From: Escherichia coli
Lineage (GTDB): Bacteria > Pseudomonadota > Gammaproteobacteria > Enterobacterales > Enterobacteriaceae
Reading direction: 5' to 3' (one strand)
DNA length: 64,000 nt
Assembly (NCBI RefSeq): GCF_003334355.1
Contig: NZ_QOWP01000002.1
The translations under genes were made by a program, and so were the position numbers. Of the stretch, positions 41,139-48,626 are shown piece by piece; position 1 is the stretch's first letter, and the number at the start of each line of letters is the position of its first letter. The notes beneath the pieces are model-generated. The model was given only the letters and a program-made list of their open reading frames with translations, was not told where the DNA came from and did no database searches.

Positions 41139-41801
41139 TTAAATCTCGTCAGGTGTACGCAGGTTGGTTACGGCAATGCGTTCACCGCGCTTGCGTTCGC
41201 GCTCTGATTGCATATTGGCGCGATAAACGCCCTGATCGCCAACCACCCAGGAGAGCGGACGACGTTCTTTGCCGATAGATTCCTGCAACAGCATCAGTGC
41301 CTGCATGTACGCTTCAGGACGCGGCGGGCAGCCCGGGATATACACATCAACCGGGATGAATTTATCGACGCCCTGCACAACGGAATAAATATCGTACATA
41401 CCACCAGAGTTGGCACAGGCACCCATTGAGATAACCCATTTTGGTTCCAGCATCTGGTCATACAGACGCTGAATAACCGGTGCCATTTTGGTAAAGCAGG
41501 TTCCTGCAACCACCATCAGGTCAGCCTGACGCGGCGAAGCACGCAATACTTCTGCGCCAAAACGCGCCACGTCATGCACCGCGGTAAACGAAGTCACCAT
41601 CTCAACGTAACAGCAGGAAAGACCGAAGTTATACGGCCAAATTGAGTTTTTACGACCCCAGTTAACCATGTCATTGAGCTTGCCCATAAACACGTTTTTG
41701 TTAACTTCTTGCTCCAGAGGGTCGGTTACGATCTCCTGCTTTTGCAGGGGATAACGGTCGTTCTCACCGTTGGGATCTATGCGGGTGAGCGTATAATCCA
41801 T
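41139..41801 (-). CDS. nuoB: NADH:quinone oxidoreductase subunit B (4Fe-4S N2 cluster)
   Basis: 220 aa; CCxxE...C...CP motifs. Confidence 0.95.
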
Positions 41802-41816
41802 CTTAATGCCTCGCGG

Positions 41817-42260
41817 TTAGCGTTGACGATTAGCGATACTGTTCGTTTCCGGGTTCATACGCTCGCGGCGTGAACGCGCGGGCGTCCAGTCCAGCGCGCC
41901 AATACGCACCAGATAAACCAGACCTGCCAGTAACACAAAAATAAAAATTGCAGCTTCCACAAAGCCTACCCAGCCGCTTTCGCGGATAGAGGTTGACCAT
42001 GCGAACAGATACAGCGCTTCAACGTCGAAGATAACGAAGAACATGGCCACCAGATAAAACTTGGCGGACAGGCGTAAGCGGGCGGAGCCGACCGAGTCGA
42101 TACCGGATTCAAACGGCACGTTTTTCGACCTCGCGCGTGCGCGACCGCCTAAAAACCAACCGCCTACCAGCATCAGGCAACACAGGCCAATGGCAACGAT
42201 AAGAAAGATAGCGAATGCCCAGTGATGAGCGATGACTTCAGTGGATGTTGACATACTCAT
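41817..42260 (-). CDS. nuoA: NADH:quinone oxidoreductase subunit A
   Basis: 147 aa, 3 TM helices; first gene of the operon. Confidence 0.95.
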
Positions 42261-42890
42261 TGCTTACTCATCAAAAGTAGCGCCAGATTCACTGCTCTTC
42301 ACGGCAGATGGACGCCACATCGATTCATGGGGAGGAATAAAAAAAACCTTACAATCACTGTAGAAATTCTTTTATACAGCTAATTGATGTGGTCTTTTAC
42401 TCCTTTCTATAACCTTTTGTCAACTTTAACAAAAGTTTCTTCACATTAGTTTACATAATATCAACACCATTAGCATTTAATGCCCTTTCACCCCAGATCC
42501 TTGACGACTCCAGGATAATTAGATGTTGTTGAATCGTGTCCGTTGTGAAGCAATGGAAAAAATACGGGTCTATTTTGACAGGAATTTGTGTCGATTCCTC
42601 CCCCCAAAAGAGAGTATTTTCTTGATCTGTGACACGCTTTTGTCATTCCATAACAAAAACGCAGCAACAAATTTACGTATTTTTTAACATCATTGTAGCA
42701 GGTGATTTTTTTCAGGCGATTATTTGTGCGTTCGGGACGTGAATCTCTGGTGATTGAAAAATGAACAGCTTTGTGCGTTCTGCACTATGCGAGGAAGGAT
42801 TTTTACTAAAAAAAAGCCGCTGGGGTTTAAAACACCCCCAGCGGCTCGTTTTTTACACTATTGTCTCAGGAATTATCTATCGTCCGTCGA
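42261..42890 (-). promoter_or_regulatory. nuo operon promoter/leader region (long AT-rich upstream region)
   Basis: 630-nt non-coding AT-rich gap between lrhA and nuoA; no credible ORF; individual sites not resolved by eye. Confidence 0.5.
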
Positions 42891-43832
<942 letters not shown>

Positions 43833-44748
43833 TTATCACTTACTGGCGGCTCATACTGAGCTGGTTAATGCTGTGCACACACAAACAAGCAATTCCATTT
43901 GTAATGTGCCTCCCTGGCAGTTTCATCCGGAACCCGGACGAAAGTAAAAATGCATATGAGTTGCACTAAAAAAGCGACTCACATTGTTCCGTTATAATGC
44001 CTGAAGTAGATCACAGAATATATCTTCAGGGATCGCATATCTATTAAGTTACTCACTCTTTTCTATTTATGACATGCGCGTGTTTGTATAAATGTAAATG
44101 TGAGTCCTTGTTCCACTCTCGTGCAGCATCGCTGGTCATACGCGAACACGTACAAACAGCAATGGTGAGGCGGCATCAAGAGCAGGGATCCGTCATTTAT
44201 GCGAGCATTTTACCCCAAAAACCTTTTATTTATAAGGGTCATTGCGAATTATCTGATGCAAAGTTATGTTATGTTAGGCAAAGTAATCTTCTATTATTAA
44301 TAAGCACATCAAAACCTTTTTGAATATTAAATAATAATTAATTAGCATCATCCTCATTCATTAATTCCGCTTAACAATAGTTTCACACCTTGCCCCCATT
44401 ACGACACCTCGGAAATCATCACGCTGTTAAACTCTCCGTAATGCGGAAATATCATCATCGCGTTTCATTAGTGAATTCTTAAATGAGGCATTTTCACACA
44501 ATTATCTTACAGATAAAAAAACCAGACTTACAATTAAGAATCAGAACAATTCACTATATAACATTGCATGTAAAGCATATACACCTCATTATTTTGTCAT
44601 TATTAAGTTATTAACAGCACAATCGAGCCTTCCCCTCTGGCAAAATCTTATTCTGCAGACCTTCAAAACACCGTCCTGGGGGAGTACATTGTTCTAAGCT
44701 GACTTCCACGGCAGGGAGTGGCGATAACAGCAAAAAAGGTCAAGATTC

Positions 44749-45966
44749 ATGTCCCCCATTGAAAAATCCAGCAAATTAGAGAATGTCTGTTATGACATCC
44801 GTGGTCCGGTGCTGAAAGAAGCAAAACGCCTGGAAGAAGAAGGTAACAAGGTACTGAAACTGAACATCGGCAACCCAGCCCCGTTCGGTTTTGACGCGCC
44901 AGATGAAATCCTCGTTGACGTGATACGCAACCTGCCTACCGCTCAAGGGTATTGCGATTCCAAAGGTCTTTACTCCGCGCGTAAAGCCATCATGCAGCAC
45001 TACCAGGCTCGTGGCATGCGTGATGTTACCGTGGAAGATATTTACATCGGCAATGGTGTATCGGAGCTTATCGTTCAGGCAATGCAGGCATTGCTGAACA
45101 GCGGGGACGAAATGTTGGTTCCTGCACCAGATTACCCACTATGGACCGCGGCGGTTTCGCTTTCCAGCGGTAAAGCGGTGCATTATCTTTGCGATGAATC
45201 CTCTGACTGGTTCCCGGACCTCGATGATATTCGCGCTAAAATTACGCCTCGTACGCGTGGGATCGTTATTATCAACCCAAATAACCCAACCGGCGCGGTA
45301 TATTCCAAAGAGCTTTTAATGGAGATTGTGGAGATTGCACGTCAGCATAATCTCATTATCTTCGCCGATGAAATTTATGACAAAATTCTCTACGACGACG
45401 CTGAGCATCACTCAATTGCACCGCTGGCACCTGACCTGCTGACCATTACCTTTAACGGACTGTCGAAAACGTACCGCGTTGCAGGCTTCCGTCAGGGGTG
45501 GATGGTGTTGAACGGGCCGAAAAAACACGCCAAAGGCTACATTGAAGGTCTGGAAATGCTGGCTTCAATGCGCCTGTGTGCTAACGTTCCTGCGCAACAC
45601 GCCATTCAGACCGCGCTAGGTGGTTATCAGAGCATCAGTGAATTTATTACCCCTGGCGGTCGTCTTTATGAGCAGCGTAACCGCGCGTGGGAACTGATCA
45701 ACGATATTCCGGGCGTTTCCTGCGTGAAACCTCGTGGTGCGCTGTATATGTTCCCGAAAATCGACGCCAAACGCTTTAACATTCACGACGATCAGAAAAT
45801 GGTGCTGGATTTCCTGTTGCAGGAAAAAGTTCTGTTGGTGCAAGGGACGGCATTCAACTGGCCGTGGCCGGATCACTTCCGCATTGTCACGCTACCGCGT
45901 GTCGATGATATCGAGCTGTCTTTGAGCAAGTTCGCGCGTTTCCTTTCTGGTTATCATCAGCTGTAA
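44749..45966 (+). CDS. alaA: Glutamate-pyruvate aminotransferase (class I PLP aminotransferase)
   Basis: 405 aa; aminotransferase class I fold with PLP-lysine region NGLSKTYRVAGFRQG. Confidence 0.9.
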   Translation: MSPIEKSSKLENVCYDIRGPVLKEAKRLEEEGNKVLKLNIGNPAPFGFDAPDEILVDVIRNLPTAQGYCDSKGLYSARKAIMQHYQARGMRDVTVEDIYIGNGVSELIVQAMQALLNSGDEMLVPAPDYPLWTAAVSLSSGKAVHYLCDESSDWFPDLDDIRAKITPRTRGIVIINPNNPTGAVYSKELLMEIVEIARQHNLIIFADEIYDKILYDDAEHHSIAPLAPDLLTITFNGLSKTYRVAGFRQGWMVLNGPKKHAKGYIEGLEMLASMRLCANVPAQHAIQTALGGYQSISEFITPGGRLYEQRNRAWELINDIPGVSCVKPRGALYMFPKIDAKRFNIHDDQKMVLDFLLQEKVLLVQGTAFNWPWPDHFRIVTLPRVDDIELSLSKFARFLSGYHQL

Positions 45967-46049
45967 TCTTAATTTCACTGCCGGAGATTGCATCCGGCAG
46001 CGTTATCCCGCCACAATGACCTGATGATGTCATCATACGTAAGGTCACT

Positions 46050-46649
46050 ATGAAACAGAGCCATTTTTTTGCCCATCTCTCCCGCCTGAAACTCATTAAC
46101 CGCTGGCCGCTCATGCGCAACGTGCGGACGGAAAATGTGTCCGAACACAGTTTGCAGGTAGCGATGGTCGCCCATGCGCTGGCAGCTATCAAAAATCGAA
46201 AATTTGGCGGTAATGTCAACGCCGAACGTATCGCTTTACTGGCGATGTACCACGATGCCTCAGAAGTGCTCACCGGCGATCTCCCTACTCCGGTGAAATA
46301 CTTCAATTCGCAAATCGCTCAGGAGTACAAGGCTATTGAAAAAATCGCTCAGCAAAAACTGGTCGATATGGTTCCGGAAGAGCTGCGGGATATCTTTGCG
46401 CCGTTAATTGACGAGCATGCATATAGCGATGAAGAAAAATCGCTGGTGAAACAGGCAGATGCACTGTGTGCATATCTGAAATGTCTGGAAGAACTCGCGG
46501 CCGGAAATAATGAATTCTTGCTGGCAAAAACGCGACTGGAAGCGACGCTTGAAGCGCGTCGCAGCCAGGAGATGGACTACTTCATGGAAGTATTTGTTCC
46601 CAGCTTCCATCTTTCGCTCGATGAGATTAGCCAGGATTCACCGCTGTAA
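46050..46649 (+). CDS. yfbR: HD-domain 5'-deoxynucleotidase YfbR
   Basis: 199 aa; HD motif ([10 protein letters not shown]...[11 protein letters not shown]). Confidence 0.9.
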
Positions 46650-46651
46650 GC

Positions 46652-46703
46652 AGCCGGAGTCTGCGTCGCATCAGGCAATAAGCGCCGGATGCGACATCAG
46701 GCT
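46652..46703. repeat. REP/BIME-type palindromic repeat between yfbR and yfbS
   Basis: gcgtcgcatcaggcaataagcgccggatgcgacatcaggc: paired inverted REP-like units. Confidence 0.6.
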
Positions 46704-46707
46704 CTTG

Positions 46708-48540
46708 TCAAAACGGAAACAGCATCGGGATCATCACCACACAAACCGCCATCACGATAATGGTGAACGGTACCCCCAACTTCACAAAGTCACTGAAGCT
46801 GTAATTTCCCGGACCTAAAACCAGTGTGTTAACAGGTGAAGAAACCGGTGTCATAAAGGCGGCGGATGCTGCCATCGCCACGACCATCGCGAATGGATAA
46901 GGCGACACCCCCATCGTTTTGGCAGCAGCCAGCGCAATCGGAGCCATCAACACCGCCGTCGCGGTATTAGAGATAAATAGCCCAATAACCGCCGACAAGA
47001 CAAACAAACACCCCAGCATCATATGTGGCCCGTAACCACCGCCAATGTCCATCAGCCCTTTCACCGCCAGCGCGACACCTCCCGTTTTCTGTAATGCCAC
47101 AGCAAACGGCATCATCCCAACGATCAAAATAATGCTCGGCCAGTGAATGGATTTATAGGCGCTTTCAGCATCTATACAGCGGAATTTCCCCATCAGCAGG
47201 CAGGCGATGATAGCGGCAACAGGATTAGGAATTTCATCGGTCAGCATTAACGCCACCATTAGCACCAGACAGAAAATGGCATGGGGTGCCTGGCTGTGCG
47301 CGGGCGATGCTTCACTCACCTCTTCCGGTAAGTTCAGCGCTACGAAGTCGCGGCCCTGTTTGGCCAGCATACCGATCAGTTTCCAGTTACCCACAACCAG
47401 GATGATATCGCCCAGCAGCAGAGGCTCATCCGCCAGCGAACCTTCCAGCGCCACGCCATTGCGCTTTAGCCCCACCACATTCAGTCCGTAGCGGGTACGA
47501 AAACCAATTTCGCGCACCGATTTACCAATCAGTTCTGACTCAGGAATTAATGAAATCTCTGCCATGCCCACATCAAGGGCCTGGTCAGAAAAATACTCGC
47601 CGCGCAGTACCATCGGCTCCAGCAATTGCTCACTACAAAATTGCCGGAGATCGACATCAGCCGCAGACATATCAATAAGCAAAACGTCACGCGCGCGAAA
47701 TTCAGAAACCCCATTAACGTTCACGATAACGCGACGAAAACGCCGCCAGCGTTCAACACCGATGACGTTAGCGCCATAACGCTCACGTAATTTGAGATCA
47801 TCCAGCCGTTGACCAATCATTGGCGATCCGGGGCGAATAGCCAGACGTCGCGCACGCCCGGTCAGTCGATATTCACGGATAAGATCGCGAAAGGTTCGAC
47901 GCGTCCAGCCTTCGCGCTGCGGGGTCTGGGTATCCCCTTTCAGCATGAAACGCATCACTAACATATACAAAATACCCAGCACCAGCACGACCAGGCCAAT
48001 AGGTGTTACGCTAAAGAAACTGAAGCCGTGATAGCCTTCACGCAGCAATTCACTGTTGACTACCAGGTTCGGCGGCGTCGCCACCAGCGTCATCATGCCG
48101 CTAATCAGCCCGGCAAAACTTAACGGCATCATCAGACGTGACGGCGAAGTTTGCATACGCATGGCAACGCTTAACACCACGGGAATAAAGATAGCGACAA
48201 CGCCGGTTGAACTCATAAACGCGCCAAGCCCCGCGACGGTCAGCATCAACAAAACCAACATTTTGATTTCACTGTTGCCCGCCACTTTGACCAGCCATGT
48301 TCCCATTACGGTGGCAACACCGGTACGGACCAAACCATCGCCAATAATAAACAAGGCGGCAATCAGGACAACGTTAGGATCAGAAAAGCCGGAAAATACT
48401 TCGGGGACCGTCAGCGTTCCGCTTAATGCAAACGCGACAATAACAAACAAAGCGACCGCATCCATACGCACTCTGCCCGTCGCAAACAAGACAATGGCAA
48501 CGGCCAGTAATGAAAGAACCCAAATCAATTCACCGTTCAC
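46708..48540 (-). CDS. yfbS: DASS/SLC13-family anion transporter with TrkA-C domains (YfbS)
   Basis: 610 aa; two membrane-domain halves flanking a cytoplasmic TrkA-C-like insert. Confidence 0.85.
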
Positions 48541-48580
48541 AACTTATCCTTGTTAATTGAGGGAGATGACTTGATTCTGC

Positions 48581-48608
48581 CATAAAAAAGCCCCGACGAG
48601 ACGGGGCT
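48581..48608 (-). terminator. Rho-independent terminator downstream of yfbS
   Basis: Minus-strand hairpin agccccgtctcgtcggggct followed by TTTTTTAT. Confidence 0.65.
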
Positions 48609-48626
48609 AAATCATGATCAGGTGTT

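Follow-up and report, generated by a model that had tools for sequence, protein, structure and literature searches.

The 58-nt gap between the convergent genes yfbR and yfbS of Escherichia coli probably harbors a decayed, immobile BIME-2-like remnant, whose hairpin, formed between two REP fragments, is the most likely determinant of the 3' ends of the two mRNAs. We analyzed this gap within a stretch of 64,000 nucleotides (termed the window, whose positions are used throughout), and we are highly confident of its anatomy and of its descent, as a REP-derived relic and not a typical REP unit.

The gap is bordered by the following two genes, named from RefSeq records:

46050 to 46649, + strand: yfbR coding sequence (5'-deoxynucleotidase)
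46708 to 48540, - strand: yfbS coding sequence (SLC13 family permease), convergent with yfbR

The ORF map places exactly 58 nt (46650-46707) between the stop codons of yfbR and yfbS, in agreement with the convergent arrangement described in a first-pass annotation of this DNA. The gap is identical to K-12 2409462-2409519 (the window coordinate equals the K-12 coordinate minus 2362812). Since 37 of 8,001 bases (window 41188-49188) differ from K-12 MG1655, the source strain is an E. coli other than K-12 MG1655. Within yfbR itself, ~100 nt into the ORF, a site at window ~46149 (K-12 2408961, + strand) appears as significant in a genome-wide table of the PMC7815308 supplement.

We then evaluated the REP identity of the gap, which the first-pass annotation had read as a typical REP/BIME palindromic unit composed of paired inverted copies. 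Both strings that it quoted were indeed found (gcgtcgcatcaggc at 46663-46676 and gccggatgcgacatcaggc at 46684-46702). The REP family was derived from the data as 26 GTAG-anchored REPs of types y, z1, and z2 from 180 kb of K-12, from which a 35-position nhmmer profile was built. Positions 46663-46677 match the z2 REP consensus exactly over its final 15 nt. The REP consensus scan that had been suggested as a check returned only a half-REP (46659-46677, E = 9e-4, with the alignment confined to positions 17-35 of the 35 in the profile) and, on the other strand, an inverted fragment with a weaker match (46697-46684, profile positions 21-34, E = 0.38 by itself). Over 244 kb, the profile yielded 38 full-length REP matches and 7 partial ones, the gap element being the shortest of the partial matches. 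Neither GTAG nor CTAC occurs in 46650-46707, where GCAG and CAAG occupy the expected places; neither fragment has a REP stem of its own, and by the nhmmer profile the element falls short of the full 29- to 37-nt imperfect palindrome of the family consensus. The K-12 annotation includes REP168 at 2409497-2409515, corresponding to window 46685-46703. The extragenic site between two stop codons, the z2 match, REP168, and the full REPs in sister-lineage orthologues together place the sequence in the REP family by location and descent. The earlier reading was thus right about a REP origin (REP168, the z2 arm, and the inverted fragments) but not about a typical or complete unit or BIME, given the missing GTAG/CTAC and the partial profile matches.

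An Rfam scan of 46400-46960 with E values up to 10 gave nothing relevant. The K-12 RefSeq copy that we used carries no repeat features anywhere (for instance, none in 1-30000), so that their absence at the gap is uninformative. A candidate z1-like REP on the + strand at 46674-46702 (ATAAGCG...CATCAGGC) was dropped, as nhmmer gave it no support. The sole full-length REP of the window lies elsewhere, at 30318-30354 on the - strand (nhmmer E = 2e-4), and has GTAG. Its stem is a variant changed on both sides (GTCGGAT...ATCCGAC versus GCCGGAT...ATCCGGC), so pairing is preserved, and the same variant is found in the K-12 copies at L010 4643 and 4869.

The anatomy of the gap resolves into the following parts:

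46653 to 46659, + strand: GCCGGAG, the leftover head of an upstream inverted REP (alignment with sister Escherichia lineages)
46663 to 46677, + strand: GCGTCGCATCAGGCA, a z2-type REP reduced to its 3' arm, lacking the 5' arm and GTAG (identity to the z2 consensus, nhmmer)
46677 to 46683, no strand: AATAAGC, the 7-nt spacer between the arms (repeat search)
46684 to 46703, - strand: an internally deleted fragment of an inverted REP, GCCGGATGCGAC followed by ATCAGGC (K-12 annotation, nhmmer)
46669 to 46694, no strand: a 26-nt unit delimited by the two direct copies of CATCAGGC (repeat search, genome comparison)
46656 to 46705 in the + strand RNA (8+8+3 pairs) and 46704 to 46657 in the - strand RNA: an extended imperfect hairpin of ~48 nt and ~19 pairs, on both strands (folding)

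The repeat search identified two 12-nt inverted arms, GTCGCATCAGGC at 46665-46676 and GCCGGATGCGAC at 46684-46695, which are complementary at 11 of 12 positions (92%) and lie 7 nt apart, as well as a direct repeat of the 8-mer CATCAGGC at 46669-46676 and 46695-46702 with a spacing of 26. The REP-head 13-mer GCCKGATGCGRCG, allowing at most one mismatch, has 4 matches in the 64 kb versus 0.45 expected, and two of the four are the gap arms. Folding of the gap hairpin gave z scores of -4.11 (+ strand) and -3.42 (- strand) for RNA and of -3.61 for DNA. The 13-mer excess and these z scores indicate that the inverted arms are real and above chance. The stable hairpin pairs the two fragments with each other rather than the arms inside one REP. 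It starts 6 nt beyond the end of the yfbR TAA stop and, on the - strand, 3 nt from the yfbS TGA stop. Liang, Rudd and Deutscher reportedly found in 2015 that ribosomes can be stalled by REPs lying no more than ~15 nt from a stop codon, which would be a lead at most for the present gap.

The inverted fragments are separated by 7 nt, the canonical length of the junction linker in K-12 BIME-2, although both members are only fragments. The element resembles the REP units and BIME-2 clusters of E. coli in its 3' arm, which equals z2 over 15 nt, in its inverted partner, which starts with GCCGGATGCG, in its short linker geometry, in its extragenic position between convergent genes, and in its annotation as REP168. 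It differs from them by the missing GTAG, by the loss of the 5' arm through a 29-nt deletion, by a partner lacking ~13 internal nt, by a hairpin that joins the two fragments, and by being single-copy and fixed.

To follow the history of the gap, we used YfbR loci drawn from 80 species genomes of the Enterobacteriaceae. The convergent yfbR/yfbS pair is kept in all of these loci, and the length of the gap varies from 2 to 144 nt, with sequences that are nonhomologous between genera. Alignments within Escherichia showed a near-full z2 REP in L012 and L014, followed by the same AATAAG...CGGATGCGACATCAGGC as in the window, and a complete BIME in L015, where GTAG is intact. Escherichia albertii has a full z2 REP with GTTG replacing GTAG, which runs directly into TCTTG without the 26-nt unit. 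The position of the lost tetranucleotide is visible in relatives (GTAG in L015, GTTG in L016, and ATAG in L012). The 29-nt deletion, with its junction between 46658 and 46659, is common to E. coli and Escherichia whittamii and removed GTAG and the 5' arm. By flank identity, E. coli and E. whittamii do not form a closest pair: the flanks of L015 are 96 to 97% identical to those of the window and the flanks of E. whittamii 91%. E. whittamii (L013) has the same deleted 58-nt gap while the closer Escherichia sp. MOD1-EC7003 (L015) has the full 106-nt BIME, a distribution that may point to recombination or recurrent deletion.

GTAG is essential for binding and cleavage by the E. coli TnpA-REP (PMC8266576; see also PMC3333891 for the tetranucleotide). 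With GTAG lost to the 29-nt deletion along with the 5' arm, the remnant should no longer be a TnpA-REP substrate, and we infer its immobility from the sequence. A pair of REP-like sequences, inverted and only a short spacer apart, makes the gap recall REPINs, the paired inverted REPs mobilized by RAYTs, but it lacks their recognition tetranucleotide, their other copies, and any sign of movement: the element occupies one place per genome, and the 11-mer GATGCGACATC had no second copy in the 244 kb searched. We therefore give almost no credence to a live, mobile, REPIN-like REP/BIME unit or to a hot spot for IS insertion, even though the inverted REP-like fragments, a copy-number polymorphism of the 26-nt unit, and the turnover of the REP content of the gap between Escherichia lineages could be cited in favor of them.

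We next queried complete E. coli genomes. The locus and the element were present in 5,426 of 5,426, the element being single-copy in each genome. An 88-nt query over these genomes gave the following alleles:

Identical to the window: 3,634 genomes, hairpin unchanged
C46655T: 976 genomes, outside the stem
G46684A: 166 genomes, opens the loop-closing pair
C46654T with G46684A: 84 genomes, same effect as G46684A
A46673G with G46701C: 33 genomes, stem positions

The copy-number variation between strains anticipated by the first-pass annotation does exist, in the form of an exact tandem duplication of the 26-nt unit, seen with two or more distinct yfbS alleles, but it is rare (at least 11 of the 5,426 genomes, this count being a lower bound). 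Loss of the unit was not seen: an exact 28-mer query for the corresponding junction matched 0 of 5,426 genomes, a search that SNP-bearing alleles could escape. The duplication fits replication slippage, since 8-nt direct repeats bound the unit, and this weighs against its being a trace of mobility. Likewise, the suggestion that the repeat is a target for IS insertion was not borne out, as no IS insertion was seen in the element among the E. coli genomes. The only IS seen nearby, the IS26 of strain 2017.06.05CC (L092, NZ_AP027790.1), sits outside the repeat; it splits yfbR ~80 nt before its stop (around window 46570) and leaves the REP remnant untouched.

Compared to E. whittamii, the gap is 86% identical and the coding flanks 91%, so that the gap diverges about as fast as its flanks or faster. 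This divergence, along with the pair-breaking alleles, leaves sequence-level constraint without support, and both facts speak against our preferred explanation. Covariation amounted to just one double change, an A.G mismatch replaced by a T-A pair in E. whittamii, which is too little to indicate structural selection. What recurs is the hairpin: among 78 Enterobacteriaceae species, 75 orthologous gaps measure 19 nt or more, and all but one of these (74) form a hairpin of -15 kcal/mol or stronger from unrelated sequences, and 74 of the 78 species have a different, unrelated GC-rich hairpin in the same gap. Such hairpins could reflect a preference of REPs for insertion at convergent gene ends. 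In several genera (loci L053, L064, L067, L076, L081, L082, and L089), CCCTCTCCC...GGGAGAGGG-type palindromes replace the REP-like ones and look like another repeat family. In Atlantibacter (L084, L085, and L088), the yfbR and yfbS stops are 2 nt apart and there is no intergenic hairpin.

These data bear on the view that the gap is neutral junk, a dead selfish repeat without a role whose reported 3' ends are incidental stalls of exonucleases, as at any stable hairpin. Evolution at least as fast as that of the flanking genes agrees with this view, as do pair-opening alleles reaching frequencies of 0.6 to 3%, the dispensability of a hairpin in the 2-nt gap of Atlantibacter, and a 2026 preprint in which genes flanked by REPs did not differ in half-life (10.64898/2026.03.23.713779). 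It accounts poorly for the retention of the element in every E. coli genome, with no deletion allele detected despite direct repeats that allow duplication, for the recurrence of a strong hairpin in the orthologous gaps, and for the sharp 3' ends that each strand is reported to show in both log and stationary phases. We consider neutrality unlikely on balance.

Published data place the ends of both transcripts around this hairpin and a Rho-binding peak next to it:

46661 to 46706 (K-12 2409473-2409518): overlap of the convergent transcripts, whose 3' ends map to 46706 on the + strand and to 46661 on the - strand (published SEnd-seq table)
46702 to 46754, + strand: a weak Rho-binding peak obtained in vitro with NusG, antisense to the 3' end of yfbS

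The first corresponds to row #366 of the SEnd-seq bidirectional terminators (yfbS:yfbR), which overlaps REP168 and was seen in log and stationary phases (retabulated in the supplement of 10.64898/2026.03.23.713779). Of the two roles previously proposed for the repeat, terminator or mRNA stabilizer, that of a terminator is supported by these ends of both strands around the hairpin. The Term-seq supplement of PMC7815308 lists no 3' end inside the gap, and we found no experiment on this particular hairpin in the literature.

A canonical intrinsic bidirectional terminator, composed of a hairpin plus a U-tract, would explain a GC-rich hairpin between the two genes, and 4 of the 8 nt in the 3' flank of the + strand (GCUCUUGU) are U. 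The 5' flank has just 1 A in 8, which leaves the - strand without a U-run, and we recognized no U-tract on either strand. A terminator scan of 46000-47400 gave no terminator-like site, with promoter-like matches at chance level. We regard this explanation as very improbable. The site does show the arrangement that characterizes overlapping bidirectional terminators (SEnd-seq, Ju et al. 2019; Wang et al., 10.1101/2022.10.23.513370), namely, a hairpin in the gap between convergent genes. Like them, it lacks a U-tract and has overlapping 3' ends, by 46 nt for yfbR and yfbS, and it is listed among them; we found no difference that sets it apart, and the collision mechanism would apply to it by analogy. 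According to the SEnd-seq authors, this class is neither intrinsic nor Rho dependent, and the hairpin pauses converging polymerases, which collide at a fixed place (10.1101/2022.10.23.513370).

Alternatively, transcription might terminate downstream through Rho, followed by 3' trimming back to a hairpin that acts only as a stabilizer, as for classical REP stabilizers. The weak + strand Rho-binding peak just past the hairpin and the lack of a U-tract are compatible with such a scheme; moreover, the - strand 3' end is located 3 nt beyond the inner stem, as trimming predicts, and REP325 is partly Rho dependent. The peak is barely over the cutoff, however (median log10 enrichment of 0.33 versus 0.3), and lies outside bicyclomycin-sensitive transcripts (10.64898/2026.03.23.713779 supplement), and the authors who defined the bidirectional terminator class called it Rho independent. 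We hold this alternative to be somewhat unlikely, although it and neutrality are the two main rivals of our reading. With the REP mRNA stabilizers and partially Rho-dependent REP terminators, exemplified by REP325 in yjdMN (10.64898/2026.03.23.713779), the gap shares a REP-derived hairpin in the 3' untranslated region and a weak Rho signal nearby; it is a single degenerate hairpin in a convergent context, whereas REP325 is a 12-unit array in a tandem context.

We thus favor the decayed BIME-2-like remnant as the source of both 3' ends and propose the following scenario. The gap is a fossil cluster consisting of a z2 3' arm, a 7-nt linker, an internally deleted inverted REP, and a scrap of a third REP. 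In the E. coli lineage, GTAG and the 5' arm disappeared with the 29-nt deletion, and the remnant is fixed at the site. The leftovers pair across the linker into a GC-rich hairpin of ~19 bp on both strands, directly after both stops. The hairpin most likely defines the 3' termini of the two convergent mRNAs without a U-tract. It would do so by pausing the converging RNA polymerases, which would meet and terminate, by blocking 3'-to-5' exonucleases, or by both. The anatomy, the descent from REPs, the fixation in E. coli, and the 3' ends are established by our data or by published ones; we infer such a terminating or stabilizing mechanism with moderate confidence.

The site was already known, having been cataloged both under the name REP168 and among the bidirectional terminators, and in this respect our analysis adds little beyond a tidy annotation. 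Its modest value lies in a clear natural history, in which a deletion deprived a mobile REP of its recognition motif and a hairpin was kept at the ends of convergent mRNAs. We tentatively envision, as a conjecture with somewhat less than even chances, that selection acts on having a hairpin and not on its sequence, that successive REP insertions supply such hairpins and decay immobilizes them, and that the E. coli relic may be a GTAG-less REP fragment, domesticated as a bidirectional terminator of the collision type and retained by every genome. Since 74 of 78 related species carry a different hairpin in the same gap, the locus lends itself well to testing whether the formation of transcript ends is what keeps REP remnants in place.
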